This document shows, in pieces, positions 1-20,838 of a DNA stretch of 26,789 nucleotides; position 1 is the first letter of the stretch, and each line of letters opens with the position of its first letter. The notes below the pieces were generated by a model that did not search any database, was not told the DNA's origin, and was given only the letters and a program-made list of their open reading frames with translations. The stretch spans positions 1 through 26,789 of IMG/VR virus record IMGVR_UViG_2568526722_000004; one strand, given 5' to 3'. This stretch comes from a virus (lineage: Duplodnaviria > Heunggongvirae > Uroviricota > Caudoviricetes). The position numbers and the translations under genes were made by a program.

Positions 1-588
1 GCGGCATGACGAATAAATATCGTTATTCTCCCGCTCATGTTTAGCGCCACGAAACGCCACCGCGGGAATAACAATCTGCCGGTCAAACGGCTGATCGTCA
101 TAAACCCTGACGGTAATGGTCCCTGATGGCCACCGCTCCGGTGCACGGGAGTCCCGGGGGAAAGCTTTGCCCACTGTTTTAACGAGATCGCCTTCAATCT
201 GGTTCGCAGACAGTTTTCCCAGAACCCGACAGTTTTCATTTATCGTGACATTGTTGAGCGTCCCGGCGTTCGCATTCACACTGCCACTGATATCCGCATT
301 TTTCGCCGTCAGTCGCCCGTCCGGTGTAAGGGAAAATGCAGGAGGATTACCGCCGCTGGTAATGGTGGGAGCCGTCAGATATTTCAGGAACACGGCCCGA
401 ACGGCAGGATCATCCGCCAGCGGTTGTGATGCCGCCGGAACGGCACCACTGGCGAAAGATGAATAACGTTCCGGCTCAGGCTCCAGCAAGACACGCCCCT
501 GCATAAACAAGGGCATCAGCTCTGAACCTGGTCTGAACAATACGATCCCCATACGCGGGGCAATTTCAGGGGTCAGTAGTGCTCTCAC
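1..588 (-). CDS. Phage tail host-specificity (lambda J-like) protein, partial: N-terminally truncated remnant whose C-terminus lies beyond the left window edge
   Basis: Hand translation of the minus strand gives an open frame from an in-frame stop at 619-621 to position 1 (e.g. ...[97 protein letters not shown]...), which resembles the C-terminal receptor-binding region of lambda gpJ from memory. No ATG; a GTG at 588 follows GAGGTGA. Not in the ORF track because it lacks an ATG start. Confidence 0.5.
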
Positions 589-1412: not shown

Positions 1413-1775
1413 TCAGGCGGCTGCACCCGCCGTTTTCTCGTACTTACTGATAGTGATCTCGACCTTCCCTCCCGGGATAACCGGTCCCCACTCCACCAAC
1501 ATTCTTTTCACCTGACTGTCGTCTTCCCACACACCCGCGTGGGTCAGGGCGTCAAACAGCGCCTTGTTATAGTTGTCCAGATCGCGGATCCGGTTAGCCG
1601 TTCTGACGGTACTCATCCCCGCGCCAATCTGACGGGCAATGGTTTCAATTGATGGCCAGCACACACCTTCGTCATTACTGAAATCAGCCAGGCGGGCCAT
1701 AATTGCCACGCTGGATAATTTCATGCCTGACGCAGCGCAACCATCCCATACATAGCCGGTTAATTTAGTGCTCAT
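1413..1775 (-). CDS. Phage helix-turn-helix domain protein
   Basis: 120-aa ORF with GAGGT RBS 5 nt upstream of the ATG at 1775; winged-HTH-like segment (SVAIMARLADFSNDEGVCWPSIETIARQIGAGMSTVRTANRIRDLD). Confidence 0.5.
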   Translation of the reverse strand: MSTKLTGYVWDGCAASGMKLSSVAIMARLADFSNDEGVCWPSIETIARQIGAGMSTVRTANRIRDLDNYNKALFDALTHAGVWEDDSQVKRMLVEWGPVIPGGKVEITISKYEKTAGAAA

Positions 1776-1784: not shown

Positions 1785-2123
1785 CTATTTCCCTGAATTT
1801 ACGACGAAACTGTTCGAGCGGGCTGAAGCACTCATGCTCATAGCCTTCACGGAGGTAGATAACCCGTTGTGTTTCCGGCTCCCAACGAATGACTCTGACG
1901 GGCACTCCGTAGTGATCTTTGAACCAGCGGTTAACTTGTCGCAAAGGACTGTCTCCTTCTGCCGGTTGAAATCACCCACAGCCCACTCTGCAAAGCTGTG
2001 GGTTACAATTTCCCTGTCACCTGGTACATTTACTGCATAGCAATACTCCACCTTCGCTTTTCCACCCGGTACAGGAAGCGCAATCAGTTGCGAGCGACGG
2101 TAGTGTGTTGTTAAACTGTTCAT
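1785..2123 (-). CDS. Hypothetical phage protein
   Basis: 112-aa ORF whose ATG overlaps the upstream gene's TGA (ATGA coupling at 2120-2123) and whose stop sits in the RBS of the next gene; operon context favours it over the antisense ORF 1768..2040. Confidence 0.45.
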
Positions 2124-2683
2124 GCGTTAGTTTCTCCACAGTCACGACACGCCACGGCGCCCGGAGCTGCACACTCGCGGGCGTCACTACTTTCTGAAAC
2201 GCAAAAGATTTTGTAGACCAGTGCTGCATGCTCCTGCAGCTTCGAAATTGAGAGGTACAGCTCATCGTTAATTGCTGTCTTCTCATGCGGTTCCACTACA
2301 CCGTCTTCAATTGCTGAACGAATCTGTTTTGAATAACTGCCGATCTGTTCAATGACTTCCAGCAGGCGTTGGTTGATATCGGCGTTGTCCACATCCTCGA
2401 CGTCAGGAAGAGACACAAAGACGCCATTTGCAGACTGCGCCACAGCATCAGCAATGAAGTGAGTGCCACCAGCACGCTGTAAAACCATTGCCCATCCCAG
2501 CGGGAAAATCTGATCGCCATCTGCACGAAGGCGGTTGAATAAAGCGTTTTCTGTTACATCGAGCCAGTCAGCCGCTTCAGCGTAACCACCCGGCAACGCC
2601 GCGATAGTTTTTCTGACAGCTTTCACGTACCACTCAGGCTGTTTTTCTATTTTCCAGTGATGCTTACCCACGGTTAGCCTCAT
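2120..2683 (-). CDS. Phage CII-like regulatory protein (YdaT-like)
   Basis: 187-aa ORF directly downstream of the Cro-like gene; position and composition resemble YdaT/CII-like proteins of Rac-type prophages. Confidence 0.5.
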
Positions 2684-2714
2684 CGTTCTGTGGTTAAAAA
2701 TTGAAAGTGTTCTG

Positions 2715-2915
2715 CTAATCTTTCGGATAGATATCCGGTCTTAAGTCAGATTTCGTAATTGCACCTGACGTGCATTGCTCAAGTTTTTTAGCCAGCACAA
2801 AACTGGCTTTTTTATAGCCATTGAAAACCAGCCGTAAGTAGCCAGGTGTTGAGCCAACTTTTCCGGCCAACTCGCCCTGCTGTTCTTTGGTTAAAGAGTC
2901 CCAATACGCTTTCAT
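2715..2915 (-). CDS. Cro/YdaS-like HTH transcriptional regulator
   Basis: 66-aa protein from the internal ATG at 2915 with GGAGGT RBS (the longer 167-aa track ORF has a non-protein-like N-terminal extension); HTH segment ...ELAGKVGSTPGYLRLVFNGYKKASFVLAKKLEQCTSGAITKSDLRPD; divergent from the CI-like gene. Confidence 0.6.
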   Translation of the reverse strand: MKAYWDSLTKEQQGELAGKVGSTPGYLRLVFNGYKKASFVLAKKLEQCTSGAITKSDLRPDIYPKD

Positions 2916-2918
2916 ACA

Positions 2919-2990
2919 ATATGTACCTCCGGTATACATATTACATGATTGAAATGAACCTTCAAGATACTTGTACCTTAACGGTACAAG
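2919..2990. promoter_or_regulatory. Divergent operator/promoter region between Cro-like and CI-like genes
   Basis: Two palindromes with TGTACC half-sites: AATATGTACCTCCGGTATACATATT (2919-2942) and CTTGTACCTTAACGGTACAAG (2970-2990); the same half-site recurs at the promoter after the CI-like gene. Confidence 0.5.
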
Positions 2991-3005
2991 GGTTTTAATT
3001 TCGTT

Positions 3006-3680
3006 ATGAAAACAATCCATGACATCCGGCGGTCTAACGCCAGAAAACTGAGAGATGGTGTTGGCGGGAATTCTTCCTTTGCCACTATGATTGATCGCGA
3101 GCCAACCCAGACCAGCAGGTTTATGGGAGATGGTGCTACTAAAAATATCGGTGACAGCATGGCACGACACATCGAAAAATGTTTCGACCTGCCTGTCGGA
3201 TGGCTCGATCAAGAACACCAGACAACGAACATCACAAAAAAACCTGATGTTTCAATCACTAATAAACAAATCACATTAGTCCCTGTCATATCATGGGTAC
3301 AGGCCGGAGCATGGAAAGAAGTTGGATATTCTGAGGTTGATTTGAGCACAGCAGAAACGTATCCCTGCCCTGTACCCTGTGGGGAAATGACTTATATCTT
3401 GCGGGTGATAGGTGATTCAATGATTGATGAGTACCGCCCGGGAGACATGATTTTTGTCGATCCTGAAGTACCTGCCTGCCACGGTGACGACGTTATTGCA
3501 TTGATGCACGATACAGGCGAAACCACCTTCAAAAGGTTGATAGAAGATGGGACACAGCGTTATCTCAAAGCGTTAAACCCAAACTGGCCTGAGCCTTACA
3601 TTAAGATCAACGGTAATTGCTCTATAATTGGTACAGTGATTTTCTCAGGAAAACCAAGAAGATACAAAATCAAAGCCTAA
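3006..3680 (+). CDS. CI-like phage repressor with LexA/S24 peptidase C-terminal domain
   Basis: 224-aa ORF; C-terminal ...YILRVIGDSMIDEYRPGDMIFVDPEV... has the GDSM serine motif of the S24 (LexA/CI) autopeptidase family; divergent from the Cro-like gene; followed by a terminator. Confidence 0.75.
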   Translation: MKTIHDIRRSNARKLRDGVGGNSSFATMIDREPTQTSRFMGDGATKNIGDSMARHIEKCFDLPVGWLDQEHQTTNITKKPDVSITNKQITLVPVISWVQAGAWKEVGYSEVDLSTAETYPCPVPCGEMTYILRVIGDSMIDEYRPGDMIFVDPEVPACHGDDVIALMHDTGETTFKRLIEDGTQRYLKALNPNWPEPYIKINGNCSIIGTVIFSGKPRRYKIKA

Positions 3681-3692
3681 TCAATGTTTATG

Positions 3693-3716
3693 AACCTGCT
3701 TCGGCAGGTTTTTTTA
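3693..3716 (+). terminator. Rho-independent terminator after the CI-like gene
   Basis: AACCTGC-TTCG-GCAGGTT hairpin followed by a run of T (3709-3715). Confidence 0.7.
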
Positions 3717-3719
3717 TAC

Positions 3720-3752
3720 TTGACAATGTACCTTTGAGATACATAATGTACC
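3720..3752 (+). promoter_or_regulatory. Sigma70-like promoter (pL-like) with flanking TGTACC operator half-sites
   Basis: TTGACA (3720-3725), 17-bp spacer, CATAAT (3742-3747); ATGTACC at 3726-3732 and 3746-3752 overlap the promoter elements. Confidence 0.5.
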
Positions 3753-3914
3753 CAAGCGAAACAACGAACAGGCAGGACGCCCACGAAGTAGCCGCCTGGA
3801 GCATATGAAGTCCAGGATGATTCGTTAGCAACAAAAAAGCGCCCTACAGGACGCTTAGCTCTTTAACAATCTGGTCCCCATCAACAAGTAACTGATAACT
3901 TGAGGAGATGTGAA

Positions 3915-4590: not shown

Positions 4591-4995
4591 CTAGGTCCAC
4601 CTCGCCTGATGTGGCTAAAAGCAGGCACATAACAGCTAAGTATTTTCAACCAGAGAGAATCCTTAGCGTTGTGGTGAATGCGGCTCAGCGCACGCGGGTT
4701 AAGGTTGAGGCTGACAGTCGACCTTCTGTGGATACCCACCCGCCTGGTGTGCAACCTTCGCCAGGCACCGGGAGGCACCCGGCACCACAACTTTATGCTG
4801 TGTGTAGTCTTGGCGGTACCAGCTTGTACCCTTGCTTCCGGCTGGTACCGTCCTTTTTACAAAACAGAGAAGAGCATCACCGGACGACGGGCTCATAACC
4901 CAATCCATCCGGGCGGCAGTCACCGCAGGTGTTCTTCTCTGTTTTGTGGAGAAACTAACCGACCTTGCAGGGTCGATATGATGAGGAGCAGCAAA

Positions 4996-7570: not shown

Positions 7571-7920
7571 TGGAGCCATACAGCCTCACACTCGATGAGG
7601 CCTGTCATTTTCTCAAGATATCCAGACCGACTGCCATTAACTGGATACGCACAGGGCGTCTTCAGGCAACACGCAAAGATCCCACTAAGAATAAATCTCC
7701 TTACCTCACAACACGACAAGCCTGCATTGCGGCTCTTCAGTCTCCGCTGCATACTGTCCAGGTGAGCGCGGGTGATGGCATAACAGAGGAAAGAAAATGT
7801 CACTCTTCCGCAGAGGTGAAATATGGTACGCCAGTTTCACATTGCCGAACGGTAAAAGATTTAAACAGTCTCTTGGAACAAAGGACAAAAGGCAGGCGAC
7901 AGAACTCCATGACAAGCTAA
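7570..7920 (+). CDS. Excisionase-like HTH protein (Xis/AlpA-type)
   Basis: ATG at 7570 with AGGTGA RBS; N-terminal [31 protein letters not shown] is an excisionase-type HTH; sits directly upstream of the integrase; the frame stays open to 7920, overlapping int by 124 nt, so the 3' end is uncertain. Confidence 0.5.
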
Positions 7921-8960
7921 AGGCTGAAGCATGGCGGGTCAGCAAACTTGGTGAAATACCTGATATAACGTTCGAGGAAGCGTGTGTCAGGTGGCTTGAA
8001 GAGAAAGCACATAAAAAATCACTGGACGATGACAAAAGCCGGATCGGATTCTGGCTTCAACATTTCGCAGGAATGCAACTAAGAGACATTACTGAATCAA
8101 AAATTTATTCAGCAATGCAGAAAATGACGAACCGGCGTCATGAGGAAAACTGGAAACTCAGGGCAGAAGCATGCAGAAAAAAAGGGAAACCTGTTCCAGA
8201 ATACACGCCAAAACCAGCGTCCGTTGCAACGAAGGCTACGCATCTTTCATTTATAAAGGCCCTACTAAGAGCCGCAGAGCGTGAATGGAAAATGCTGGAT
8301 AAGGCACCAATTATTAAAGTGCCCCAACCAAAGAATAAACGGATCCGCTGGCTGGAGCCCCATGAAGCACAAAGGCTGATTGATGAATGTCCGGAGCCAT
8401 TAAAGTCTGTTGTTGAATTTGCACTGGCAACAGGCCTAAGACGCTCGAACATCATCAACCTTGAATGGCAACAAATAGATATGCAGCGCCGGGTGGCATG
8501 GATAAACCCGGAAGAGAGTAAATCAAACCGCGCAATTGGCGTTGCGCTGAATGATACTGCATGTCGCGTATTGAAAAAACAAATCGGGAATCATCACCGT
8601 TGGGTATTTGTGTACAAGGAAAGCTGTACCAAACCAGACGGAACGAAAGCGCCAACAGTCAGGAAGATGCGGTATGACGCAAACACAGCCTGGAAAGCGG
8701 CGCTGAGACGGACTGGTATTGATGATTTCAGATTTCACGACTTGAGACACACCTGGGCAAGTTGGCTGGTTCAAGCCGGAGTCCCGTTGTCAGTGTTACA
8801 GGAAATGGGAGGCTGGGAGTCTATCGAAATGGTTCGTCGATATGCTCACCTTGCACCTAATCACCTTACCGAACACGCACGGCAAATAGACTCGATCCTA
8901 AACCCATCGGTCCCAAATTTGTCCCAGTCAAAAAATAAGGAAGGTACTAATGATGTGTAA
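7797..8960 (+). CDS. Tyrosine recombinase, lambdoid phage integrase
   Basis: 387-aa ORF; N-terminus [14 protein letters not shown]... (arm-binding type); C-terminal catalytic region ...[40 protein letters not shown] with the conserved HxxR and Tyr motif; ends 13 nt before a copy of the thrW 3' end. Confidence 0.85.
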
Positions 8961-9070: not shown

Positions 9071-9307
9071 TAAGCGCCTGTATGATTAGACTCCGGGAAA
9101 AACATAAAAGCTATTCATTTAAGAGCTTTATGTCTTCATTCACTTTGTCAATTAAGAAAGATATCCAAACGAATAAAATTTCAATTTATTGAAGGCCATG
9201 TCATGTTTTCTATTTCTACAGTTTAAAAGTTTTATCATAACCTTCTGTTAGAACAGAATTAATTAGCAAAAAAACCCCAAGGGCATGAGGTTTTTTATTT
9301 TCCATTG

Positions 9308-10288
9308 TCATGCTAAAGCTCGAGCTACATTTTCTTTGATCGCAATAGCACAAGGAGTTTTGAACTTTTCTTTGCAACAGTGTAATAGCGTATTAATATT
9401 CAAATCAGTTTCAAGAATATTTTTTAGCTCACTCTTTCTTTCCGAGATTAAGGTTGGTTTATCTTTGCATTGTTTGACTATTAAGGCAGTTTCATTAATA
9501 TTCAATTGCTCTATCAATGATTTTATGACAGGCATGACAACTCTATCAGCTAAAAAATGACCATTGATATATTGATAGGCGTTATCTTCTCTCAATCCTT
9601 TATCATATAACTGCTCATAGAATTTATCAGCATCGTATTCATCTTGAATAAGGTTATCAAGTTTTTCTTCAATAACCGCTTTAGATTGCTGCATACTTTC
9701 AAATACAGCATTTTTGATAACAAATTGGTTCGTTAATCGTGGCACAGAAGGAGCAATCGCTTCATGGAAAACTGAGTCATCAAGTCTAACTTGATGCTGT
9801 TTAAGCAATAAAAATTTCTTCAGCACGGGGTAGATCAACCGTGAATACTCTGTAATGTATGCTGTAAAATCGAATTTAATTTCAGTAGCGATCTTTATTT
9901 GAGAAAGACAATACTCAAGGACTTCATGGTGTAACTCGATGCTCTCTTTTGAATATACAAATGTTTGAAAAATAAACTTGTTACTGCAAATTATCTCTGA
10001 GTCTGTACTGTTTTTAGGGCATAAATAATCAAAATCACTATCCATTGCAAATATGGCATATCGATTTGCTCGGCTCATGAATTTTTTTAATACTGGTTTC
10101 CCTTTTGTTCCTTTATTGGTAGGGTTACAAATATCAAAACGTATATCATTATCTTTATCGTTTAATAAGCCTTCCCAGAAAGAAATGTCTTTTAGACCTT
10201 CAACAAAGACAAAGCCATTGTGTCCAGCCATAATACAATATACCTGAAGATATTCTTCGCTAAAATTAATATCCTCAAACTCAGTCAT
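9308..10288 (-). CDS. ariB: AriB-like DUF4435/Toprim protein (PARIS defense system effector)
   Basis: 326-aa ORF overlapping the upstream ATPase gene by 8 nt; N-terminal Toprim-like features (MAGHNGFVFVEGLKD..., acidic AIFAMDSDFDY); low GC; the pairing with an ABC-type ATPase is the PARIS (AriA/AriB) architecture. Confidence 0.6.
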   Translation of the reverse strand: MTEFEDINFSEEYLQVYCIMAGHNGFVFVEGLKDISFWEGLLNDKDNDIRFDICNPTNKGTKGKPVLKKFMSRANRYAIFAMDSDFDYLCPKNSTDSEIICSNKFIFQTFVYSKESIELHHEVLEYCLSQIKIATEIKFDFTAYITEYSRLIYPVLKKFLLLKQHQVRLDDSVFHEAIAPSVPRLTNQFVIKNAVFESMQQSKAVIEEKLDNLIQDEYDADKFYEQLYDKGLREDNAYQYINGHFLADRVVMPVIKSLIEQLNINETALIVKQCKDKPTLISERKSELKNILETDLNINTLLHCCKEKFKTPCAIAIKENVARALA

Positions 10289-11276
10289 GAGAAGATTCCT
10301 TTGAAATATTTTTTATATCTACGAAAGAATCCATCCAGCCTTTCATTAATATTGCAGGACTATGAGTAACAATAATTAACTGACAATTATCGTTAATTGA
10401 TTTGATGGTGCTTATTAATCTTTCTTGCCACGTAAGGTGCAAGGATATTTCTGGCTCATCCATCAACAAGACAGATTCATCCAATGAAGTATTAGCTGTT
10501 TTAATCAGAATATATAACAACTGACGTTCACCTGATGAAAGAAGATTATACCTAATATCTTCACCAGAATCACTCATCTTAATAGAAATGTTACCATTAC
10601 TAAAAGAAACAACTTTGTTACATTCAGCAAATAAATTATTTATAGCTGATTCCAACTTATCCTTTATGAGAATACCTTTAGACTCACTTACTTTGAAAGT
10701 ATTCTTTAACCTTTCTAATTCACCAGCAATTTCCATATCAAGAATTGTGGTGCGCTCACCATCACTTTTTTTGAATTCATAGATGGAATTGGCACTCATA
10801 TTGATAGTTGATATTAACTCAACATTTATTCGCTTAGTGTTTTTAATATTATCACTTACGCTAACAGTTCCCATCCCGAACTCTTTAATTTCAGTGTCTT
10901 CTTTTTTCGATTCAAGCAACTCAATAAGTTCATTTAACTCCTTTATTTCCTTACCCTTTGATTTACCTTTAATACTGTTTTTCTTAAGGTTATTAAGTAG
11001 GTTTAGAAGCTGGACAGAGTCAATTTCGCGAAAATTAACTTTGTGAGTAATTGTGCCTCCATTGGCCAATGTTATTTGAGCCAACGCAGCATTACTTAAA
11101 CTTTCATTTAATTCTTGTTTTAAGAGGGCAAAAACACTTTGAATTATCGTGCTCTTACCTGAGCCATTTTTACCCACTAAAACATTCACATCTTTTAAAC
11201 TCCAATCAATGTCCTTCCGTTTAAAAAGACCTTTGATTGCTATATTTTTGATTATCGTCGCCACTCTCGTATCCAT
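10281..11276 (-). CDS. ariA: AriA-like ABC/AAA_15-21 ATPase (PARIS defense system sensor)
   Basis: 331-aa ORF; Walker A GKNGSGKST, signature-like LSSGERQLL, Walker B LLMDEPE, H-loop IIVTHS; low GC. Confidence 0.65.
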   Translation of the reverse strand: MDTRVATIIKNIAIKGLFKRKDIDWSLKDVNVLVGKNGSGKSTIIQSVFALLKQELNESLSNAALAQITLANGGTITHKVNFREIDSVQLLNLLNNLKKNSIKGKSKGKEIKELNELIELLESKKEDTEIKEFGMGTVSVSDNIKNTKRINVELISTINMSANSIYEFKKSDGERTTILDMEIAGELERLKNTFKVSESKGILIKDKLESAINNLFAECNKVVSFSNGNISIKMSDSGEDIRYNLLSSGERQLLYILIKTANTSLDESVLLMDEPEISLHLTWQERLISTIKSINDNCQLIIVTHSPAILMKGWMDSFVDIKNISKESSHD

Positions 11277-11653
11277 TATTATGAAAGTTGAAATGATTAT
11301 AACATGCTTAGCGTGCGCTTGGCATCTACCCTACAGTTGTTAGCAATAAACTTTATAACACAATGTAACACATTGAATTTAAACACTTAATATCAAATCC
11401 AACGCTAAACATCACGGAACCTGAAAGACTCTTGGCATTCTAGTTAGTACCTACTACGAAACGTTTTGAAAGGTTAAAGTGGACAGTCCGCATCAACTGT
11501 AACTTAAAATGCTCAGTAACGATGCATCTGCATGATTTGCAAAGTATGACAGAACTTCATTTGATGCTTTCACAAATGCGTGCCTGAAGTTTTCTAAAGC
11601 GGCGCGGTTAACTCTTTCTGGCTCAAAACCTTAATAAATCTGTATATCGCGGG

Positions 11654-11880
11654 TTGACACACTTGACACTTTTTCGGGAAAAACCTTAACAAAACTTAAC
11701 CTCCCCTGGCATTTCTAAGCATGGCAACTTGACACTTTTCGCGATTTTTTCGGCTTTTTGACGTGGTAAATCTGGCGAAAGGCCAGTAATGGCGCGGCTT
11801 ACAGCGAGGTTGACACTTTTTCGCGTTCAGAGTGTAAAGTGTCAACCTGGCAAGCTGCTCAACTTGACACTTTTTGATGT
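11654..11880. repeat. Array of TTGACAC(T)TTTT direct repeats plus one inverted copy
   Basis: GTTGACACACTTGACACTTTTTCGGG (~11654-11680), AACTTGACACTTTTCGCG (~11727), GGTTGACACTTTTTCGCG (~11808), inverted AGTGTAAAGTGTCAACC (~11831), AACTTGACACTTTTTGATG (~11862); immediately 3' of the 175-aa HTH gene. Confidence 0.55.
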
Positions 11881-12407
11881 CATTGATGGTCTGATTTTTC
11901 CCATTCAGCTAGGGCGTTTAGCCCGGCTTCACTCCATGATTCCAGTTCATCGGCATAATCACCTGCAACATAGCAGAGTTCGCAACGCAGCATACGAATT
12001 GCCAGCCTGGCATTACCTCGCAAATTGTATTTTTCAAAGTAATGCTGCCCTTCATCATCCTCAAGGCAGATAGCACCATCATCAAGAAAGTGCACTTCCC
12101 AGCCTAATTCCCCGGCTGCATCCAGCACACGCTGCTGTATGCCCTCGTCCGTTGCTGGCGCAGGAATTTTACCGCCTCTGGCCTTAACTGCTTTCCAGAA
12201 CTCGCCCCACGTCATTTCCAGCGTTCTTTCTGGCCACATTTCAGAAATGGTGTCTTTCCCCTGTGCTGGTGGGCTGTTCCGCTGCTCTGTCGCTTCCACA
12301 TCAATTTTTTTGCCAGACATGATCACTTCGCCTTTCTCGATCCAGTCGTAAACTGTCTGGCGGCTTACGCCTTTGTATTTGGCGTATTCGGCTTTACTCA
12401 TCAACAT
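11880..12407 (-). CDS. HTH-domain protein with terminase-small-subunit (Nu1)-like N-terminus; possible packaging or regulatory role
   Basis: 175-aa protein from the ATG at 12407 (GAGGTGA RBS 5 nt upstream); N-terminal MLMSKAEYAKYKGVSRQTVYDWIEKGEV resembles the winged-HTH of small terminase/Nu1-type proteins; the track's longer 202-aa form is an unlikely N-terminal extension. Confidence 0.5.
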   Translation of the reverse strand: MLMSKAEYAKYKGVSRQTVYDWIEKGEVIMSGKKIDVEATEQRNSPPAQGKDTISEMWPERTLEMTWGEFWKAVKARGGKIPAPATDEGIQQRVLDAAGELGWEVHFLDDGAICLEDDEGQHYFEKYNLRGNARLAIRMLRCELCYVAGDYADELESWSEAGLNALAEWEKSDHQ

Positions 12408-12506
12408 GTAGCTCACCTCATGCATATACGATAAAAAATAATTTAATGCGAAAAGGGAATGCGTTGTGGGTATGGAGGAAAGGGGCAATAACCGCCCCTT
12501 ACTGAT

Positions 12507-12779
12507 TCAGTTGCGCCAGGATGGCTGGCTAAGCGTGGTTTTCATTACATCATTGACGACCTGCTTTACGATTTCTGTGTTGGCAGTCGTGCTTTCAACA
12601 TCAACAAAGCCATAATCGCCAATTTCCACCGTCAGGGATTCCAGTTTCTTCCCCAGTGCATCAGGCAACTCTCCACTGAACCGGTGCCGAAGATTTTCCA
12701 CCAGCAAAGCCCTGAATGCCTCGCTGTTCTCTTTTTTCTGCCATAGCTGGCGTTTATCCACTCTGATATTTAATTTCAC
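12507..12779 (-). CDS. Hypothetical protein (90 aa)
   Basis: GTG start at 12779 overlapping the upstream stop (GTGA) and preceded by GAGGTGAGG; second gene of a three-gene operon. Confidence 0.45.
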   Translation of the reverse strand: MKLNIRVDKRQLWQKKENSEAFRALLVENLRHRFSGELPDALGKKLESLTVEIGDYGFVDVESTTANTEIVKQVVNDVMKTTLSQPSWRN

Positions 12780-12943
12780 AGCCTCACCTCTTTAAGTGCC
12801 TTATCCATCAGTTGCCGGGCAATAACATGAATCGACGGTGCCACACCAAGCACAGATTTCTGACGCTTTTCGGCCTGGATACGTTGCAGGGCTTCGATCT
12901 GCCCCCGGGAAAGTAAAACTGGCTTTACTCCGTGATTTTTCAT
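12776..12943 (-). CDS. Small putative DNA-binding protein (55 aa)
   Basis: ATG at 12943 with AAGGGA RBS; MKNHGVKPVLLSRGQIEALQRIQAEKRQKSVLGVAPSIHVIARQLMDKALKEVRL; palindromic operators lie just upstream; the track ORF 12776..13099 has a junk-like N-terminal extension. Confidence 0.45.
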   Translation of the reverse strand: MKNHGVKPVLLSRGQIEALQRIQAEKRQKSVLGVAPSIHVIARQLMDKALKEVRL

Positions 12944-12962
12944 GATGATCCCTTCTGAATGA

Positions 12963-13019
12963 CAATAATTGCAATTATTGCACAAATTGAAATAATACCA
13001 TCGATAATTGCAATAAATG
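12963..13019. promoter_or_regulatory. Palindromic operator candidates upstream of the 55-aa gene
   Basis: Perfect 18-bp palindrome CAATAATTGCAATTATTG (12963-12980) and related GATAATTGCAATAAATG (13003-13019) in an AT-rich region 20-80 bp upstream of the start at 12943. Confidence 0.5.
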
Positions 13020-13221
13020 AAACAAAAAGCATCAATAAACCAACCTTCGGCACTAAATGCTCTGATTTTTCTGCAAAGGTATGGCAGATGTTGCTGCATG
13101 CAAACATAAAGGAAATAGCAGAAGAAACAGCGGGGAGTGAAAAGGGGAAGTTTTTATAAATACACGATTGTCGCCTCACTGCAGGTTAACAGCCACAAAC
13201 CCCATGATAATAACTTGTTAA

Positions 13222-13545
13222 TTATTTCATCAGATTTTTCATTATTTGCGCGATTGAGTACACAAGCAAAAACTCGGCAGCCGCAAGAGTATAAAAAACA
13301 TAGATTCGCTTAGCCCACCGACGATGAAAGAACTCCTCAGCATGGCCGAATGTTCGAGATACAAGCCATGCACCTACTGCACACAGAGCAGGTGCAATGA
13401 GCACAGTTATAAACCAGATTGTGATGCCCATCCCATGCCTACTGATAATAGCCATTGGTATTGCAAAAATGAATGTTAGAGCAGCATTAGCTAATAGAAT
13501 ATCTTTTAAAGTATTTTCAATTAGTTTTTCTAGATTATCTTTCAT
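13222..13545 (-). CDS. Small integral membrane protein (about 3 TM helices)
   Basis: 107-aa ORF with hydrophobic segments (LLANAALTFIFAIPMAIISR, ITIWFITVLIAPALCAVGAWLV, IYVFYTLAAAEFLLVYSIAQI); AT-rich; directly downstream of the lipoprotein gene. Confidence 0.55.
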   Translation of the reverse strand: MKDNLEKLIENTLKDILLANAALTFIFAIPMAIISRHGMGITIWFITVLIAPALCAVGAWLVSRTFGHAEEFFHRRWAKRIYVFYTLAAAEFLLVYSIAQIMKNLMK

Positions 13546-13570
13546 CTAATCCCCCCCGTTGAACATTAAT

Positions 13571-13595
13571 ATATAAAAGCCCCTTACTAAGGGGC
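13571..13595 (-). terminator. Intergenic stem-loop with U-run between the lipoprotein and membrane-protein genes (terminator or attenuator)
   Basis: On the minus strand GCCCCT-UAGUA-AGGGGC followed by UUUUAUAUAUU; lies in the 64-bp gap between the two genes. Confidence 0.5.
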
Positions 13596-13609
13596 TTTGC
13601 ACGGATTGT

Positions 13610-14752
13610 TTAAAGGGAACTTTTTTTCGCCCCTTCAATTTCTTCCTGACAAATTTCGTCATTTGTAAATGAGTACTGCAGATAGACATATCCCTGAGTG
13701 GAATTGTTCGCTCTGGCCTCAATAGAGATAGTATCGATATTGTTTTTTAATGGTATTTCTTTTGTTCCCTTCCATGTGGCAGATAAGAAGCGTTCTTTTT
13801 TGTTTAGCCCCCTCATCCAGTCCTGAGGATCTTTCCAAATTGAACCAGCCAGCAAAAAGTCTGTAGTATCAGCCTTTCCATACAGAGAACTTAAAGAATT
13901 ACTCAATTCTTCAAACTTGGATTTAAGAGCCAATCCATAGCTATCAGTATCAATATTTTTTCCTAAAGCCCGTATTTGACATAAACCAGCTTTCGGGGAG
14001 ATCAACAAACCATACATTTCAAAATCTGCGTTTTGCTTCGGTAATTTATCAGAAGTATACAGATTCACACTGTCTGGTAGTGGCTTGAGCTTAGCACCGA
14101 TCATATCTTCGATGTTTTTCTGTGTAAGACCGGCTTCTAAGCCAAACGGACCATCCGCTGGCGGGAGTAAAGGAAGTTGCCCTTGGGAATTTTTGGCTGT
14201 TACTTCCGTTTCAGTACTGTTTTTTGCGTCATTATCTTGTACTGATGCCAGCTTAACTTCAGCGAGGCCATACTTGGCTGTGAGGTACTTTTGCTGCAAC
14301 ATTGCCATGGTCTGCTCTTCAGTGGCAACAGTAGATAATTTTAGTACCTTTATCAGACCACCACTATACTGACGAGCATCAGCTTTGGCTTCGTTGATTT
14401 TTGCATCTAAGCTGTCAATTTCAGTTTTAATTGAAGCCGCAAGCTCAGGATCAGGTTTTACTCCAGATACAACAACATCAATTTTGGCACCTGATTCAAT
14501 AGCATTAATACGCTGTTCCAAAAGCGCTTTATTAGTTCCTAATATTTCCAGTCTTGCTGTTGTCAGATTTTTTATCAACCCACCAGAAAACTGCTGGTCA
14601 ACTTCCTTAGCTGCTGATATTTCACCTTCCGTTTGCGACAGTTCAGCTTTAAGAGCCGCTACTTCCTGTTTCTGTTCTGGAGTTAACTCTTCTGGCCCAC
14701 ATCCGGTTAACATTACTATACCGACTAATGTTGCAATTAAAGTTTTATTCAT
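13610..14752 (-). CDS. Lipoprotein with internal tandem repeat, unknown function
   Basis: 380-aa ORF; signal peptide with lipobox (MNKTLIATLVGIVMLTGCG); two related ~55-aa repeats (…QQFSGGLIKNLTTARLEILGT… and …RQYSGGLIKVLKLSTVATEEQ…); AT-rich. Confidence 0.6.
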   Translation of the reverse strand: MNKTLIATLVGIVMLTGCGPEELTPEQKQEVAALKAELSQTEGEISAAKEVDQQFSGGLIKNLTTARLEILGTNKALLEQRINAIESGAKIDVVVSGVKPDPELAASIKTEIDSLDAKINEAKADARQYSGGLIKVLKLSTVATEEQTMAMLQQKYLTAKYGLAEVKLASVQDNDAKNSTETEVTAKNSQGQLPLLPPADGPFGLEAGLTQKNIEDMIGAKLKPLPDSVNLYTSDKLPKQNADFEMYGLLISPKAGLCQIRALGKNIDTDSYGLALKSKFEELSNSLSSLYGKADTTDFLLAGSIWKDPQDWMRGLNKKERFLSATWKGTKEIPLKNNIDTISIEARANNSTQGYVYLQYSFTNDEICQEEIEGAKKSSL

Positions 14753-14929
14753 ATCCCTATTCCAAATGAAAATATTCAGATTAATCTTATCAGGAACCCA
14801 GATGCAATTGAATATTCATCTGCTCAGCAACGTAGTAGATTTCCTCAGAAAGCATCAACAAAAAACCAAGAGAATCCCATCCTCTGTTACTGACTACAAT
14901 TGTTCTTTTTTTGGTATTTCCTGAATGCC

Positions 14930-15175
14930 TCACCATTGAGCTGATGTAATCCCATCCCGGCATGTGCCCGGCTGATGGTTTCGCGCATCTCCCCCGAAAT
15001 TATCCTGCCTTGCTGGTGGGCGTGCTGCCTTGTGGATACATTCCGCGCGACGTTTTGCCGCCTGTTCCCGTGCCTTGTCATCATTCGCCAGCATGATGAC
15101 CTCAGCCCACCGCGCCGCCGCTCTCCGGTACAGACCACGCGCTTCCAGTGCTTCCGCTTTGCTGTCGTGAATCAT
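14930..15175 (-). CDS. PerC-family transcriptional regulator-like protein
   Basis: 81-aa ORF with ATGA overlap to the upstream gene; MIHDSKAEALEARGLYRRAAARWAEVIM... resembles PerC/Pch-type proteins. Confidence 0.5.
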   Translation of the reverse strand: MIHDSKAEALEARGLYRRAAARWAEVIMLANDDKAREQAAKRRAECIHKAARPPARQDNFGGDARNHQPGTCRDGITSAQW

Positions 15176-15684
15176 GCGCCTATTGTCTCCTTTGCTGCCC
15201 GGCGCTGGCGTTTGCGCTTCTCATTCAGCGCCACCAGCCGCGTTTCTGCGTCCTGTTGTTCCTGTGGTGTCACCTCGCCGCACGGCTGGCCTTTCAGGTC
15301 GTAGCGTACCCCACCAGCCATTAAGGCGCGGTAATAGTGCGGACACTGCGCATAAGATGCCAGCGTCGCACGCAATGCCCCTGGCCCGAATGCCAGCCCC
15401 CTGACGGCGAGATCCTGCATCAGGTCGTCGAATATCCCCACCTTAAGCGGCTTCGGTGCTTCCCGGCTGAATAAGTCAGGCCACAACTCAGTGAGGCGGT
15501 TAACGCGCCTGCGGTTTTTGCGCTGGCGTTTGGTCATATGCCGCCACGGTGTCGCCCCTGTGGGCTTTTGCTGCGCTTTCTGGTTACCGGGCATCACTTT
15601 ATGCGCCGATGTGGTTTTATGATCTTACCCAGCAATAGTGGACACGCGGCTAAGTGAGTAAACTCTCAGTCAGAGGTGACTCAC

Positions 15685-15984
15685 ATGACAAAAACAGTAT
15701 CAACCAGTAAAAAACCCCGTAAACAGCATTCGCCTGAATTTCGCAGTGAAGCCCTGAAGCTTGCTGAACGCATCGGTGTTACTGCCGCAGCCCGTGAACT
15801 CAGCCTGTATGAATCACAACTCTACAACTGGCGCAGTAAACAGCAAAATCAGCAGACGTCTTCTGAACGTGAACTGGAGATGTCTACCGAGATTGCACGT
15901 CTCAAACGCCAGCTGGCAGAACGGGATGAAGAGCTGGCTATCCTCCAAAAGGCCGCGACATACTTCGCGAAGCGCCTGAAATGA
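15685..15984 (+). CDS. insE: IS3 transposase OrfA (InsE)
   Basis: 99-aa product [32 protein letters not shown]... with AGGTGA RBS; matches IS3 InsE from memory. Confidence 0.9.
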
Positions 15985-16847
15985 AGTATGTCTTTATTGA
16001 AAAACATCAGGCTGAGTTCAGCATCAAAGCAATGTGCCGCGTGCTCCGGGTGGCCCGCAGCGGCTGGTATACGTGGTGTCAGCGGCGGACAAGGATAAGC
16101 ACGCGTCAGCAGTTCCGCCAACACTGCGACAGCGTTGTCCTCGCGGCTTTTACCCGGTCAAAACAGCGTTACGGTGCCCCACGCCTGACGGATGAACTGC
16201 GTGCTCAGGGTTACCCCTTTAACGTAAAAACCGTGGCGGCAAGCCTGCGCCGTCAGGGACTGAGGGCAAAGGCCTCCCGGAAGTTCAGCCCGGTCAGCTA
16301 CCGCGCACACGGCCTGCCTGTGTCAGAAAATCTGTTGGAGCAGGATTTTTACGCCAGTGGCCCGAACCAGAAGTGGGCAGGAGACATCACGTACTTACGT
16401 ACAGATGAAGGCTGGCTGTATCTGGCAGTGGTCATTGACCTGTGGTCACGTGCCGTTATTGGCTGGTCAATGTCGCCACGCATGACGGCGCAACTGGCCT
16501 GCGATGCCCTGCAGATGGCGCTGTGGCGGCGTAAGAGGCCCCGGAACGTTATCGTTCACACGGACCGTGGAGGCCAGTACTGTTCAGCAGATTATCAGGC
16601 GCAACTGAAGCGGCATAATCTGCGTGGAAGTATGAGCGCAAAAGGTTGCTGCTACGATAATGCCTGCGTGGAAAGCTTCTTTCATTCGCTGAAAGTGGAA
16701 TGTATCCATGGAGAACACTTTATCAGCCGGGAAATAATGCGGGCAACGGTGTTTAATTATATCGAATGTGATTACAATCGGTGGCGGCGGCACAGTTGGT
16801 GTGGCGGCCTCAGTCCGGAACAATTTGAAAACAAGAACCTCGCTTAG
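15981..16847 (+). CDS. insF: IS3 transposase OrfB (InsF), DDE catalytic domain; expressed as OrfAB by -1 frameshift
   Basis: 288-aa ORF overlapping the orfA stop (ATGA); DDE-type integrase core (…HTDRGGQY…, …[11 protein letters not shown]…). Confidence 0.9.
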
Positions 16848-16982
16848 GCCTGTGTCCATATTACGTGGGTAGGATCATTATCCTGCTCCTGCGCCGCCTG
16901 CGTCGTTTTCTGCGGCGTGCCGTAAATGCCTTTCGGTTTTCTGTTAATGGTCAGCTTAGTCATGCTTTGCCCCATCGTTACA

Positions 16983-17316
16983 ACTGTCTACCAACTGTCT
17001 ACCGATATAATTGTTTGATTTATTTAATGTTATTAATACATAACAAAAAAACAATCTGCAAACTGTCTACCAACTCTCTACAGTATTAATACATTGATAA
17101 TTAATGACTTTTACTAAATGGTAGACAGTGTAGATAGTTAAAAGAAAAATTTTAAAAATGAACCCATAACTATCTATTTTTAGATACCCCCGTGGTTTAG
17201 AAATATAAAATAAACTGTCCACCTCTCTACCACATTAAAAATACCTATATAATTCAAAACATTAATTAGTAGATGGTTGGTAGAGGGTTAAGTGTATCTG
17301 TCTACCAACCGTCTAC
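16983..17316. repeat. Iteron-like repeat array in AT-rich DNA downstream of the primase gene (candidate replication origin)
   Basis: CTGTCTACCAACTGTCTACC (16983-17002), CTGTCTACCAACTCTCTAC (17063-17081), inverted GGTAGACAGTGTAGATAG (~17120), CTGTCCACCTCTCTACCAC (~17215), inverted GGTTGGTAGAGGG (~17276), CTGTCTACCAACCGTCTAC (17298-17316). Confidence 0.6.
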
Positions 17317-17344
17317 TTTTAAGTTTCAACTTATAAATTTCGTA

Positions 17345-19150
17345 TCATGTTCTGTCGTTAATGCCTGCCGTTGCTGGTAACCATCCATCAGCATCTTTAT
17401 CTAACAGAACATTTGTGATCGTTCGCCCTTTATCTGGACCTTTAGTGCATTTAGCCCGCTTGTACTCCTTTCCGTACTCAGCCATTGCCCCTGGCATATC
17501 TGTACCAAAGCGTGTCAGTGATACCGGTTTTCCCAGACCATGCGCAGACATATAAGCCAAATAAGCATGATACAGATATCGCCTCGGACTAAATGGCACT
17601 ATTTCTGCATTACCTACTATCATTCCCTCACATTTAACCAACGACATCAGATAACCGCAGAAGTCCACCAGCGAATCACCTTCACGCTTTATCAACAGTG
17701 CTTCTTCTGATTTTTGCTGCTCATAAAGTAGTCTTTTCGCTTCGTCCTGGTCGGCAAATCGTGTAAGCAAATGGCGAATCACTACTGCCAGTTCCCCTTC
17801 TATCTTTTTCGCCAGCATCGGATCGCGTTCGTTCTCTGGTACAACCTCAGAGAAATTAAATATTACTCGTCGACGCGAGATCCCCCCACTACGGTCGCTG
17901 AATGACATGGCATAATTGTTTACTGCCAGCACTACCGCAGGAACGCGCGTGGAATAGGGCGCTTTGTGTTTCGGATCGATAGCCACCTTGTCACCGCCTG
18001 TAATGGCCTTAATCCCAGCACCATCACCTGCGTAGCGGGTCATGTCAGGCATGATAATCAGAGAATATCCCACCACTAACGCTCGTTCCCTCGCGTCTTC
18101 CAGCGCCTTCATGCTCGCCGATACTGTATTGGCCTTACCCGCCAGCATGGTACAAATCTCCGCCATCACACTTTTACCGCTTCCGCCCGGCCCCGTTACC
18201 TCAAGGAATAACTGCCAGTCGTACCGGTTCGCCAGTACCATGAATAATGCCGCCAGTACGCGATCCGCTTTACGAGCATTATCCGCCACCGAACGACGCA
18301 ACCACTTCCAGAAATTCGGCGCATGTGTTGCCAGCGTTTCCCCCTCTTCTGGCGGGCTGAACGGTAATTCACTGGCATTTAACAACCAGTCATTTTTGTT
18401 GTGTTCCCGAAAATTTCCTGTCCTGATATCAAAAACACCGTTACTGAACCCAATAAGATTTCTGTCCGCTCCCCCCATAACAGGTAGACTCAATTTCATT
18501 GTCTCTACGGCAAATTTAATGGCGTTTTGCGAATAACTAATTTCGGCATCAATAAAAATCTTCGCCATAGACCGCTGGAGTTCCTTATCAGATACAGGCT
18601 CCCAAACAATTCCGTTGTAATGGTGAACTACATCAGAATCATCATTTATCGCCAGTGCTCCTCCATAATGTTCAAGTAACACTTCCCCTCTCTGGCTGGC
18701 TCCCATCTGATTTAATGCAGGCTTGGGTAGACCACTATTTTTTGTAGCTAATTTCATCACTGAAACTTCCCCGTGCTCAGCCTGTTCGCGGATCCGTTGC
18801 AGGTAGTCGCGCCAGTTCTCCGGTTCCTGGTCGGTGATACCTTTGTATAATTTCGCCTCCTGTACGCCAGCCAGCGCCAGCTTTTCAGCGATAGTATTGA
18901 TCTGGATTGGCTCTATCTCCCCCGCGATATAGACACGCGCAAAACGGCGTTTCTCGTCAATAATGCGGATATTCGCCAGGTCTGCCAGTTGCTTTGGCCC
19001 CAGGTAAACAGGAGGCACGTTATCGCCGTGTTTTCGTCCTTCACTTTCAATCCAGTGTTGAGCATGGGCGTAAGCATCCATCCCGGCAAAAATGATTACC
19101 TCAGTGAATTTATCCTTCGGCTGATATTTTAGACTCGGTGCGTTTTTCAC
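17345..19150 (-). CDS. Replication primase/helicase-like protein (P4 alpha / D5-type SF3 NTPase family)
   Basis: 601-aa ORF; Walker A in ...LEVTGPGGSGKSVMAE...; last gene of a tightly coupled operon; followed by the iteron array. Confidence 0.7.
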   Translation of the reverse strand: MKNAPSLKYQPKDKFTEVIIFAGMDAYAHAQHWIESEGRKHGDNVPPVYLGPKQLADLANIRIIDEKRRFARVYIAGEIEPIQINTIAEKLALAGVQEAKLYKGITDQEPENWRDYLQRIREQAEHGEVSVMKLATKNSGLPKPALNQMGASQRGEVLLEHYGGALAINDDSDVVHHYNGIVWEPVSDKELQRSMAKIFIDAEISYSQNAIKFAVETMKLSLPVMGGADRNLIGFSNGVFDIRTGNFREHNKNDWLLNASELPFSPPEEGETLATHAPNFWKWLRRSVADNARKADRVLAALFMVLANRYDWQLFLEVTGPGGSGKSVMAEICTMLAGKANTVSASMKALEDARERALVVGYSLIIMPDMTRYAGDGAGIKAITGGDKVAIDPKHKAPYSTRVPAVVLAVNNYAMSFSDRSGGISRRRVIFNFSEVVPENERDPMLAKKIEGELAVVIRHLLTRFADQDEAKRLLYEQQKSEEALLIKREGDSLVDFCGYLMSLVKCEGMIVGNAEIVPFSPRRYLYHAYLAYMSAHGLGKPVSLTRFGTDMPGAMAEYGKEYKRAKCTKGPDKGRTITNVLLDKDADGWLPATAGINDRT

Positions 19151-19437: not shown

Positions 19438-19441
19438 GGTT

Positions 19442-20789: not shown

Positions 20790-20838
20790 TATTTTTTTTC
20801 CTGCATACTGCATTTGTTTTTTGTAAGGGGTACACAAC

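Follow-up and report, generated by a model that had tools for sequence, protein, structure and literature searches.

Candidate operators and predicted promoters of an e14/SfV/SfIV-type immunity switch in a defective prophage

The closest described relatives of the locus analyzed here are the immunity regions of the e14 element of E. coli K-12 and of phages SfV and SfIV. In e14 the genes concerned are ymfK/cohE and ymfT/croE, together with ymfL and ymfM. [quoted passage not shown] The N gene is absent in both SfIV and SfV (PMC3851460). The SfV GenBank record describes the gap between cro and cI as a 'putative operator region', the SfV and Ayreon records annotate the cI terminator, and the Ayreon record also annotates a promoter 3' of cI. 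Prior annotations for the YmfK/YmfT region of e14 hold only a 'putative operator region'. The switch is therefore already known, as the annotated e14/SfV/SfIV immunity region, and we compared the present locus with it.

The window, by which we mean the whole 26,789-nucleotide stretch of DNA that was analyzed, contains a defective e14/SfV-type prophage, which is the host of this immunity switch. The element, located upstream of a P4-like island beside tRNA-Thr/proA, has its own integrase and yfdP-T-type genes. A foreign gpJ (tail-gene) fragment forms the left edge of the remnant, a replication gene is fused to rusA, most of the replication gene and everything beyond kilA have been lost, and no late genes occur within the 26.8-kb window. 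The switch of the remnant is intact: CI, Cro, the five operator-like sites, the three predicted promoters and the terminator are all present (Table 1).

Table 1. Features of the immunity region and its surroundings in the window.
Feature	Position	Strand	Description
gpJ (tail-gene) fragment	1-386		foreign; left edge of prophage remnant
replication-gene::rusA fusion	1413-1775		in prophage remnant
pR operon genes 3' of cro	1785-2683	-	CII-like ymfL homologue and ymfM-like ORF
ymfM-like ORF	1785-2123	-	97% identity to K-12 YmfM
ymfL homologue, CII-like	2120-2683	-	Phage_CP76 1.4e-13; PHROG 101 'CII-like activator' 1e-70
cro-like gene	2715-2915	-	66 aa; YmfT/CroE type, YdaS-family HTH; ATG 2915, stop 2715-2717
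OR-A, operator-like	2922-2938	.	TGTACCTCCGGTATACA; 10/12 to dyad; over predicted pR start and cro Shine-Dalgarno GGAGG
pR, predicted	2938-2965	-	-35 TTGAAG 2960-2965, 16-nt spacer, -10 TAATAT 2938-2943; toward cro
OR-B, operator-like	2955-2971	.	TGAACCTTCAAGATACT; degenerate, 9/12; over pR -35; centre 43 bp upstream of cI start
pRM, predicted	2971-2999	+	-35 TTGTAC 2971-2976, 17-nt spacer, -10 TTTAAT 2994-2999
OR-C, operator-like	2972-2988	.	TGTACCTTAACGGTACA; perfect dyad 12/12, 0 mismatches; within pRM across -35 and spacer
cI-like repressor gene	3006-3680	+	224 aa; ATG 3006; putative N-terminal DNA-binding domain, C-terminal S24 autopeptidase
cI intrinsic terminator	3692-3718	+	hairpin 3692-3711 plus T run
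pL-like promoter	3720-3747	+	TTGACA 3720-3725, 16-nt spacer, CATAAT 3742-3747; 11/12 match
OL1, operator-like	3727-3743	.	TGTACCTTTGAGATACA; within pL spacer
OL2, operator-like	3747-3763	.	TGTACCCAAGCGAAACA; last base of pL -10 to about +9
structured leader RNA	3761-3828	+	68 nt; 5' end of predicted pL transcript; covariance model match 93.6 bits
rrn-type boxA	3858-3869		GCTCTTTAACAA; with a hairpin, 3' of leader RNA

The first-pass annotation had described divergent CI-like (S24 peptidase) and Cro-like genes separated by 90 bp, and the reading-frame coordinates bear this out, the gap being exactly 90 bp. Residues 93-212 of CI match Pfam Peptidase_S24 (E = 1.5e-26; 92.8 bits against a cut-off of 23.3), and the C-terminal domain aligns with lambda CI C-terminal structures in a profile comparison (E = 1e-12). 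Ser138, in the motif GDSM, and Lys176, in FKRL, are invariant in our comparison set of 24 relatives, in which CI identity ranges from 61 to 100%; in VQAGAW, Gly101 is invariant and Ala100 is at least 90% conserved. By analogy with LexA and lambda CI, we take Ser138/Lys176 to be the catalytic dyad and Ala100-Gly101 to be the cleavage site. For the N-terminal domain, no Pfam family was found even at E = 10, and hhalign against the 434 repressor N-terminal domain was negative. The profile matches the first 80 or so residues of a solved phage repressor (PDB 5d50; residues 1-79; E = 1.1e-4) and, weakly, a phage CI N-terminal domain (7nkv; E = 0.029), and residues 1-74 match PHROG repressor families. 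The weak profile match to a solved phage repressor hints at a DNA-binding domain, of which the putative recognition-helix residues (Thr34, Gln35, Ser37 and Arg38) are invariant in the same 24 relatives. The whole protein is 100% identical to YmfK of K-12 e14 and to the CI proteins of SfIV and Ayreon, and one residue away from that of SfV. The Cro-like protein has weak Pfam matches, both under the Pfam cut-off (YdaS_toxin, 1.5e-5; HTH_3, 0.0065), and matches PHROG 35 'transcriptional repressor' at 3e-15; it is identical in SfV, SfIV and Ayreon, and YmfT of K-12 is one residue away.

We scanned the window for TGTACCNNNNNGRTACA with up to two mismatches, using 100 shuffles as a control. The scan, which the first-pass annotation had suggested for TGTACC dyads, returned 13 strand-matches against 2.17 ± 1.68 in the shuffles, none of the 100 reaching 13, and yields five operator-like sites. 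The matches fall at eight distinct places, five of them within the short non-coding OR and OL stretches, where four of the ten plus-strand TGTACC hexamers of the window also fall. The two TGTACC palindromes reported earlier for the cro-cI gap are present as OR-A and OR-C, while a third site, OR-B, had been missed. Likewise, TGTACC had been noted as flanking the -35 and -10 elements of the promoter after cI; it does occur at 3727, directly after the -35 element, and at 3747, overlapping the last base of the -10 element, but these hexamers turn out to be parts of two full 17-bp sites, OL1 and OL2. The candidate operator consensus is TGTACC-N5-G(G/A)TACA, spanning 17 bp. OR-C, moreover, is part of a 21-bp near-perfect palindrome, and the right half of OR-A is TATACA here, in SfV and in Ayreon, and TGTACA in e14 and SfIV. 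A further TGTACC-like match (3371-3387) falls within the coding sequence of cI, where the conserved PCPVPCG motif is encoded, and is taken as coding constraint or chance. A reading of the sites as LexA boxes was discarded, since they are unlike CTGT-N8-ACAG, the sequence of the LexA box.

The geometry of the sites is fixed in the 24 relatives. OR-A is at the same place in all 24, with OR-A, OR-B and OR-C at 0, +33 and +50 bp, and OL1 and OL2 are 20 bp apart at fixed positions relative to the pL hexamers, except that two relatives show a 1-bp shift. The half-sites hold 1.6-2.0 bits per position, compared with 0.29 bits (OR-C) and 0.48 bits (OL1) in the 5-bp centres. At OR-C, where the half-sites reach 1.96 and 1.84 bits, we counted 21 distinct centre pentamers yet only two to three distinct half-site hexamers; at OL1 (2.00 and 1.85 bits), 22 relatives have 18 distinct centres between them. 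The left half of OL2 is conserved (1.75 bits; TGTATC in Ayreon) and its right half weakly so (0.81 bits). Half-sites that are near-invariant around free centres indicate that the sequence is recognised, and not a hairpin; judged from these alignments, the pattern is the footprint of a sequence-specific dimeric DNA-binding protein. The first-pass annotation was right that the half-site is common to the pR-like and pL-like regions, as it recurs in all five sites, and its near-invariance strongly supports recognition of both the OR and OL regions by one sequence-specific protein. This single protein is the part of the earlier proposal, one repressor for both promoters, that half-site conservation favors.

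The predicted pR is read from the sequence, and its hexamers hold their position in the relatives (for example, TTGCAG/CATAAT in EPP-1). Transcription is expected to begin at 2931 (minus strand) from pR and at about 3754 (plus strand) from pL. The predicted -10 element of pRM is without the usual A at position 2, and a TnTAAT-like hexamer lies 6-7 nt 5' of the cI ATG in most relatives. The predicted start would coincide with the A of this ATG, giving a leaderless mRNA, and no Shine-Dalgarno sequence was found ahead of it. We place pRM under OR-C because the ymfK mRNA is leaderless by experiment and the OR region of e14 is one nucleotide away from ours. As claimed before, a strong promoter follows immediately after the cI terminator; its hexamers are essentially invariant in the relatives (1.96 and 2.0 bits). 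The terminator itself keeps its hairpin and T run at the same place in the relatives, with different stem sequences. Homology to the cdtI phage, the Stx2c phages and Ayreon stops between about 3763 and 3777, just past OL2. Since these phages differ further left, the exchanged immunity module extends from cII to OL2.

The locus is very probably a lambda-style lysis/lysogeny switch of the e14/SfV/SfIV immunity type, carried by a defective prophage. We infer from its layout the binding by CI and Cro, the roles of the sites, cooperativity, activation, SOS cleavage and immunity. First, a dimer of the 224-aa CI would bind the 17-bp operators. OL1 and OL2, covering the pL spacer and the -10/+1 region, would shut the strong pL and thereby silence the leftward early operon, that is, the leader RNA, small ORFs, the yfdP-T genes and xis/int. 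On the other side, OR-A at the pR start and cro ribosome-binding site and OR-B at the pR -35 element would silence cro, the CII-like ymfL and the ymfM-like ORF. The distance of OR-B from the leaderless cI start is that of lambda OR2, so OR-B could serve CI-activated transcription from pRM. OR-C, inside pRM, would allow CI to repress its own gene, Cro to shut cI off, or both. Finally, DNA damage would lead to RecA-stimulated self-cleavage of CI at Ala100-Gly101 via Ser138/Lys176. Some observations run against this model, among them that the best site, OR-C, overlaps pRM, although ymfK is transcribed in K-12. The affinity of CI, however, need not track the match to the dyad consensus.

A simpler switch with a single OR site for each promoter, as in the first-pass annotation, in which only OR-A, OR-C, OL1 and perhaps OL2 are real operators and OR-B is kept for the pR -35 element, seems to us rather unlikely, although it survives best among the alternatives. 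Of the five sites, OR-B matches the dyad least well (9/12 in the window), the CAA conserved at its centre is complementary to TTG in the pR -35 element, and no gap separates the site from OR-C. The two sites abut at 17 bp centre to centre, whereas operator sites in lambda are 23-24 bp apart; therefore, the simultaneous filling of OR-B and OR-C and an OR2-like activating role for OR-B are both uncertain. However, the left half TGAACC lies in the lightly constrained pR spacer and still holds 1.89 bits per position in the 24 relatives. In most of them the right half reads GGTACT, which brings the overall match to 10/12, and a Proteus relative has TGTACC as the left half. We retain OR-B as a candidate operator in a five-site switch.

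That the remnant is a dead relic, with a CI that is either not made usefully or irrelevant and with neither immunity nor regulation left, is improbable. The gpJ fragment, the rusA fusion and the loss of late genes from the window fit such a relic, and so does the behavior of Ayreon, which has an identical CI and was isolated, and grew, on the K-12 derivative KD471; if that host had e14, a resident e14-type repressor failed to block infection. On the other hand, CI, Cro, the five sites, the promoters and the terminator are intact and within the natural variation of functional phages. Even the sole OR difference from e14, the TATACA half-site, recurs in SfV and Ayreon. The equivalent repressor gene of e14 is transcribed in K-12, and matching sequence is present in about 2,700 of 5,426 E. 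coli genomes (about half of complete genomes). The earlier suggestion that immunity might persist in the remnant is reasonable, because SfIV and Ayreon, both live phages, have a CI identical to the one here and the promoters and candidate operators of the remnant are intact. It is extremely improbable that the palindromes are RNA or DNA hairpins acting as terminators or attenuators, even though a terminator scan lists 2970-2990, with its T-rich tract, as terminator-like: the relatives show no compensatory stem changes, the arms of the OR-C palindrome being invariant and not covarying around a variable loop, the same hexamers occur in the poor hairpins of OR-A, OR-B and OL2, and OR-C, being within the promoter of a gene with a leaderless mRNA, would not be transcribed from pRM.

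Outside the switch proper, a structured leader RNA would be the first thing under switch control on the left side. Across at least 62 different promoter contexts it begins some 7-14 nt past the predicted start of pL, and it is common to phages with unrelated repressors and operators, with one copy per element. Its carriers include e14, SfV, SfII, ST64B, mEp460, ZF40, YeP1, SPN3UB, an Aeromonas phage and more than 120 IMG/VR contigs. Compensatory changes occur in 8 of its 15 base pairs; in 80 viral contigs, 94.8% of the pair cells are paired, and the covariation is strong at 0.489, whereas sliding the pairing gives no more than 0.104. Folding of the single sequence is not significant (z = -0.51), and the structure is visible by comparative analysis only. 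The unpaired segments are almost invariant.

No Rfam family matches the leader RNA, which proves little because putL of HK022 is itself not in Rfam. Neither the immunity region of HK022 nor the complete genome of HK639, in which an annotated putL-like RNA is present, gave a match to covariance model R1 at E ≤ 10. By sequence and structure the leader RNA is therefore not placed with the HK022-type putL/putR RNAs; it shares with put RNAs only the short words ACGAAC and CAGGATGA. A second, putR-like copy was found neither in the window nor in an intact 42-kb prophage locus, and a full-text literature search for the core sequence returned nothing relevant. Because the unpaired segments are near-invariant and there is no match to Rfam or to the HK022 and HK639 put RNAs, we tentatively raise the possibility, about which we remain doubtful, that pL feeds this leader RNA with no N-type antiterminator and that the RNA represents a second, unrecognised family of cis-acting RNAs that modify the host polymerase (processive antitermination) in lambdoid phages lacking N. 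It may already have been described, for example by King et al. 2011, who reportedly treated put-like RNAs. As a lead for new biology, the leader RNA behind pL is better than the switch.

As a switch, the locus matters little: it adds another example of a prophage immunity module that is very common in E. coli/Shigella. For the region of e14 YmfK/YmfT, the operator consensus TGTACC-N5-GrTACA, the three-plus-two map of candidate sites and the predicted promoters are now explicit. The intact switch probably keeps a ymfM-type SOS-inducible division inhibitor and xis/int silent, and it may exclude SfIV-, SfV- or Ayreon-type phages.

Comparison with lambda shows a shared plan built from different parts. 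Both have divergent cI and cro genes, 17-bp dyads over pR, pRM and pL, a leaderless cI, a pL downstream of cI on the same strand and alignable C-terminal S24 domains. However, the operator sequence is unrelated, and both Cro and the N-terminal domain of CI come from other sequence families. The spacing of the OR sites is 33 and 17 bp here, whereas it is 24 and 23 bp in lambda. In addition, two OL sites are seen here, OL lies about 750 bp from OR, and rexAB is absent. HK022, a lambdoid phage that lacks N and relies on put antiterminator RNAs, resembles the present locus in having a structured RNA directly after pL (compare putL; PMC9378689) and an OL region with TGTAC/GTACA words. The arrangement of these words differs, being GTAC-N5-GTAC in HK022 and GTAC-N7-GTAC here; a full-text literature search for the operator word returned nothing relevant.

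The match to the e14/SfV/SfIV group is far closer. In e14, the 90-bp OR region differs from ours by one nucleotide and OL1 together with OL2 by one centre base; cro, ymfL and ymfM follow one another in the same order, and the leader RNA lies 3' of pL in both. The e14 element occupies another chromosomal site and has other left-arm genes (ymfJ, ymfI, xisE and intE). SfV and SfIV show 98-99% nucleotide identity over 2700-3800, and the further kin of the immunity region are Ayreon, the cdtI and Stx2c phages and PhiR29/PhiR49. Unlike the remnant, phages of the SfV/SfIV/Ayreon group are complete and inducible, and the centre bases of their operators vary among them. In summary, the locus has the same repressor and candidate operators as the putative e14/SfV/SfIV homoimmunity group, with half-sites that are alike except for single-base variants.

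The cro-like and cI-like genes are divergent with a gap of exactly 90 bp, as the first-pass annotation had proposed, and CI carries a C-terminal Peptidase_S24 domain (Pfam, E = 1.5e-26) that can be aligned to C-terminal structures of lambda CI. The N-terminal 80 residues of CI match no Pfam family; used as a profile, they match the DNA-binding N-terminus of the solved phage repressor 5d50 (E = 1e-4), and PHROG repressor families are also matched. For Cro, the Pfam matches to YdaS/HTH_3 are weak and under the cut-offs, and there is a match to PHROG 35, 'transcriptional repressor'.

Features of the immunity region and of the second island in the window
Feature	Position	Strand	Description
ymfM-like ORF	1785-2123		downstream of cro; 97% identity to K-12 YmfM
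CII-like gene	2120-2683		downstream of cro; Phage_CP76, PHROG 101
cro-like gene	ATG 2915 to stop 2715-2717	minus	ORF, 66 aa
OR-A	2922-2938		TGTACCTCCGGTATACA
pR	TTGAAG 2960-2965, TAATAT 2938-2943	minus	16 nt spacer; plausible from sequence
OR-B	2955-2971		TGAACCTTCAAGATACT, degenerate
OR-C	2972-2988		TGTACCTTAACGGTACA, perfect dyad
pRM	TTGTAC 2971-2976, TTTAAT 2994-2999	plus	17 nt spacer; predicted
cI-like gene	3006-3680	plus	ORF, 224 aa
cI terminator	3692-3711 + T run		upstream of pL
pL	3720-3747		TTGACA-16-CATAAT, 11/12 match; predicted
OL1	3727-3743		TGTACCTTTGAGATACA
OL2	3747-3763		TGTACCCAAGCGAAACA
Leader RNA	3761-3828	plus	68 nt; starts ~7 nt into predicted pL transcript
IS3-family transposase	15981-16847		second island
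D5-like primase	17345-19150		second island
AntA-domain protein	21736-22536		second island
P4-type integrase	23965-25179		second island

Searching with the pattern TGTACC-N5-GGTACA, we found five sites of this type, clustered in two non-coding stretches: the cro-cI gap (operator-like sites OR-A, OR-B and OR-C) and the stretch after cI (OL1 and OL2). The previously suggested scan for TGTACC dyads, run with TGTACCNNNNNGRTACA and at most two mismatches, gave 13 strand-matches compared with 2.17 ± 1.68 in shuffled sequences, and 13 was reached in none of 100 shuffles. Both palindromes first described in the gap are present; the degenerate third, OR-B, had been missed. The half-sites noticed at the -35 and -10 of the promoter after the cI terminator each prove to be half of a full 17-bp site: OL1 fills the pL spacer, and OL2 begins at the last base of the -10. 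At pR, OR-B lies over the -35, and OR-A covers the start point and the cro Shine-Dalgarno sequence. A sixth match, with two mismatches, falls at 3371-3387 within cI itself, where the conserved PCPVPCG motif is encoded; coding constraint or chance probably explains it, the alternative being an intragenic operator.

To compare the sites among relatives, we used a set of 24 members with CI identities of 61% to 100%, consisting of the window, Hafnia phage yong2, Edwardsiella phage EPP-1 and 21 loci from Pseudocitrobacter, Klebsiella, Atlantibacter, Leclercia, Pantoea, Rahnella, Serratia, Symbiopectobacterium, Proteus and others. The OR geometry is fixed in 24/24 (A, B and C at 0, +33 and +50 bp). 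The spacing of OL1 and OL2 is 20 bp, and their placement relative to the pL hexamers is likewise constant except in two of the 24, where it is shifted by 1 bp. Conservation is concentrated in the half-sites, which hold 1.96 and 1.84 bits per position in OR-C (central 5 bp, 0.29) and 2.00 and 1.85 in OL1 (centre, 0.48); OR-C has 21 distinct centre pentamers compared with only two or three distinct half-site hexamers. A hairpin formed by the site arms is rejected, since the arms never covary; with no compensatory substitution seen among the relatives, the conservation pattern is that of sequence recognition by a symmetric protein. The probable recognition-helix residues of CI (T34, Q35, S37 and R38) are invariant across the same set. 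The left half of OR-B, TGAACC, holds 1.89 bits despite its position in the pR spacer, and we therefore accept OR-B as real, though less confidently than the other four. The shared site pattern and conserved half-sites also support the earlier suggestion that one repressor would control both the pR-like and pL-like promoters.

OR-B and OR-C abut, 17 bp centre to centre, and may or may not be occupied together; the distance from OR-A to OR-B is 33 bp. The perfect dyad, OR-C, is inside the predicted pRM and not on pR, an arrangement that would suit either Cro shutting cI off first or tight autoregulation by CI; the affinity of CI need not track closeness to the dyad consensus. OR-B has its centre 43 bp ahead of the start of cI, approximately where lambda OR2 lies relative to pRM. 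The pRM -10 ends 6 nt ahead of the cI ATG, which has no Shine-Dalgarno sequence, so a leaderless cI mRNA is predicted, as in lambda. In the cryptic K-12 prophage e14, ymfK, the cI gene, is one of only five leaderless mRNAs detected in E. coli K-12 by differential RNA-seq (PMC4681348). Since the e14 and window OR regions differ by a single base, this lends experimental support to the predicted pRM.

The prophage around the switch is defective, as the window contains no late genes. The best intact-prophage matches come in two pieces and reach only from 381/387 to 8990. A fragment of a lambda-type tail-tip gene J occupies positions 1-386; it is 100% identical to the corresponding part in other E. 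coli prophages, and its adjoining an SfIV-like early region marks the left edge as a rearrangement junction. The ORF at 1413-1775 (-) is an in-frame fusion of a replication protein N-terminus (HTH_36) to a RusA C-terminus, replacing ~1.7 kb present in an intact relative and marking a deletion of about that size compared with intact SfIV-like prophages. The switch itself is intact: the sole OR change from e14, TATACA for TGTACA in OR-A, is shared with SfV and Ayreon, both live phages. With pR repressed, the ymfM-type gene would stay silent, as would xis/int with pL repressed. In e14, the ymfN-ymfK region reportedly contains the SOS-inducible division inhibitor sfiC (PMC6206680). From the identical repressors, immunity to SfIV- or Ayreon-type phages can fairly be inferred. 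One caveat to the predicted immunity is that a K-12 derivative served as the isolation host of Ayreon (PMC5764929); e14 is normally present in K-12, and may have been in that host.

In the early-left region, an Rfam match to the sRNA family STnc100 lies at 4638-4861 (+) (43.4 bits, slightly below the gathering score of 47, E = 2.7e-7), overlapped by a weak DicF-like match at 4799-4853. A second island (9300-25421) has the SfIV-like integrase (7797-8960) on one side and tRNA-Thr (25346-25421, minus), followed by proA, on the other; it resembles a P4-like satellite or island placed in tandem with the remnant prophage. AriA (AAA ATPase, E = 2.6e-43) and AriB (DUF4435, E = 3.6e-22) form a PARIS anti-phage defence pair at 9308-11276 (-).

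The leader RNA at the start of the predicted pL transcript has short counterparts with 82-100% identity in many phages with unrelated repressors, such as SfII, ST64B, mEp460, mEp237, YeP1-3, Pantoea AH07, SPN3UB, ZF40 and Aeromonas pAEv1818; in every case examined, it follows a cI-type gene by roughly 100-250 nt, in the same orientation. Its exact 21-nt core occurs in >120 IMG/VR contigs. The structure has three helices with 15 pairs, eight of which show compensatory changes (alignment n = 19), and almost invariant unpaired segments. A covariance model found exactly one copy per locus in 80 loci, where 94.8% of pair cells are paired and covariation is 0.489 compared with at most 0.104 for slid partners and 0.128 in shuffles. 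At least 62 different sequences precede it, carrying differing operator-like repeats; in most there is a promoter of the TTGAC(A/C) type, with the end of its -10 ~10-21 nt before the RNA. Rfam has no family matching it, nor one for HK022 putL, and the covariance model does not detect the HK022 and HK639 put RNAs. Its position and the type of phage that carries it (lambdoid, no N) suggest the hypothesis of a putL-like, cis-acting antiterminator. At 3837-3856 there is a hairpin with an intrinsic-terminator score that is better on the minus strand; it is directly followed by the exact rrn-type boxA word GCTCTTTAACAA at 3858-3869 (+), which corresponds to 12 of the 13 bases of E. coli rrn boxA. 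This hairpin-then-boxA order within the pL leader is rrn-like, and the ~40-nt module is also found in Klebsiella phages.

The region shares 98-99% identity with Shigella phages SfIV and SfV and 94-96% with Ayreon, cdtI, Stx2c phages and 2H10. Of 5,426 complete genomes of E. coli, 2,736 contain matching sequence; in E. coli, RefSeq names the genes ymfK, ymfT and ymfL. Homology to cdtI, Stx2c phages and Ayreon ends between ~3763 and 3777, just beyond OL2, which fits a mobile immunity module spanning cII to OL2. The SfV GenBank record labels the gap 'putative operator region' as well as the cI terminator, the Ayreon record annotates the promoter after cI, and the SfIV genes are named cI and Cro, with homologues of N, cII and cIII absent (PMC3851460). 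Our contribution consists of an explicit map of the sites and their consensus, neither found in the literature searched, which lay outside the SfV and e14 genome papers. As a switch, the element is of low interest; follow-up should go to the leader RNA downstream of pL. In the OL/pL region of HK022 (1330-1400 of the sequence examined, minus strand), TGTAC/GTACA words such as AATGTACTATTGGTACTTTACAT occur; the half-site is alike, whereas the GTAC words are 5 bp apart compared with 7 bp in the window. The OR spacing is unlike that of lambda. CI is 100% identical in amino-acid sequence to K-12 e14 YmfK and to the cI products of SfIV and Ayreon, and Cro differs from e14 YmfT by one residue. Given this near-identity and the existing annotation, what the defective prophage carries is an ordinary lambdoid immunity switch, of the e14/SfV type and annotated before.
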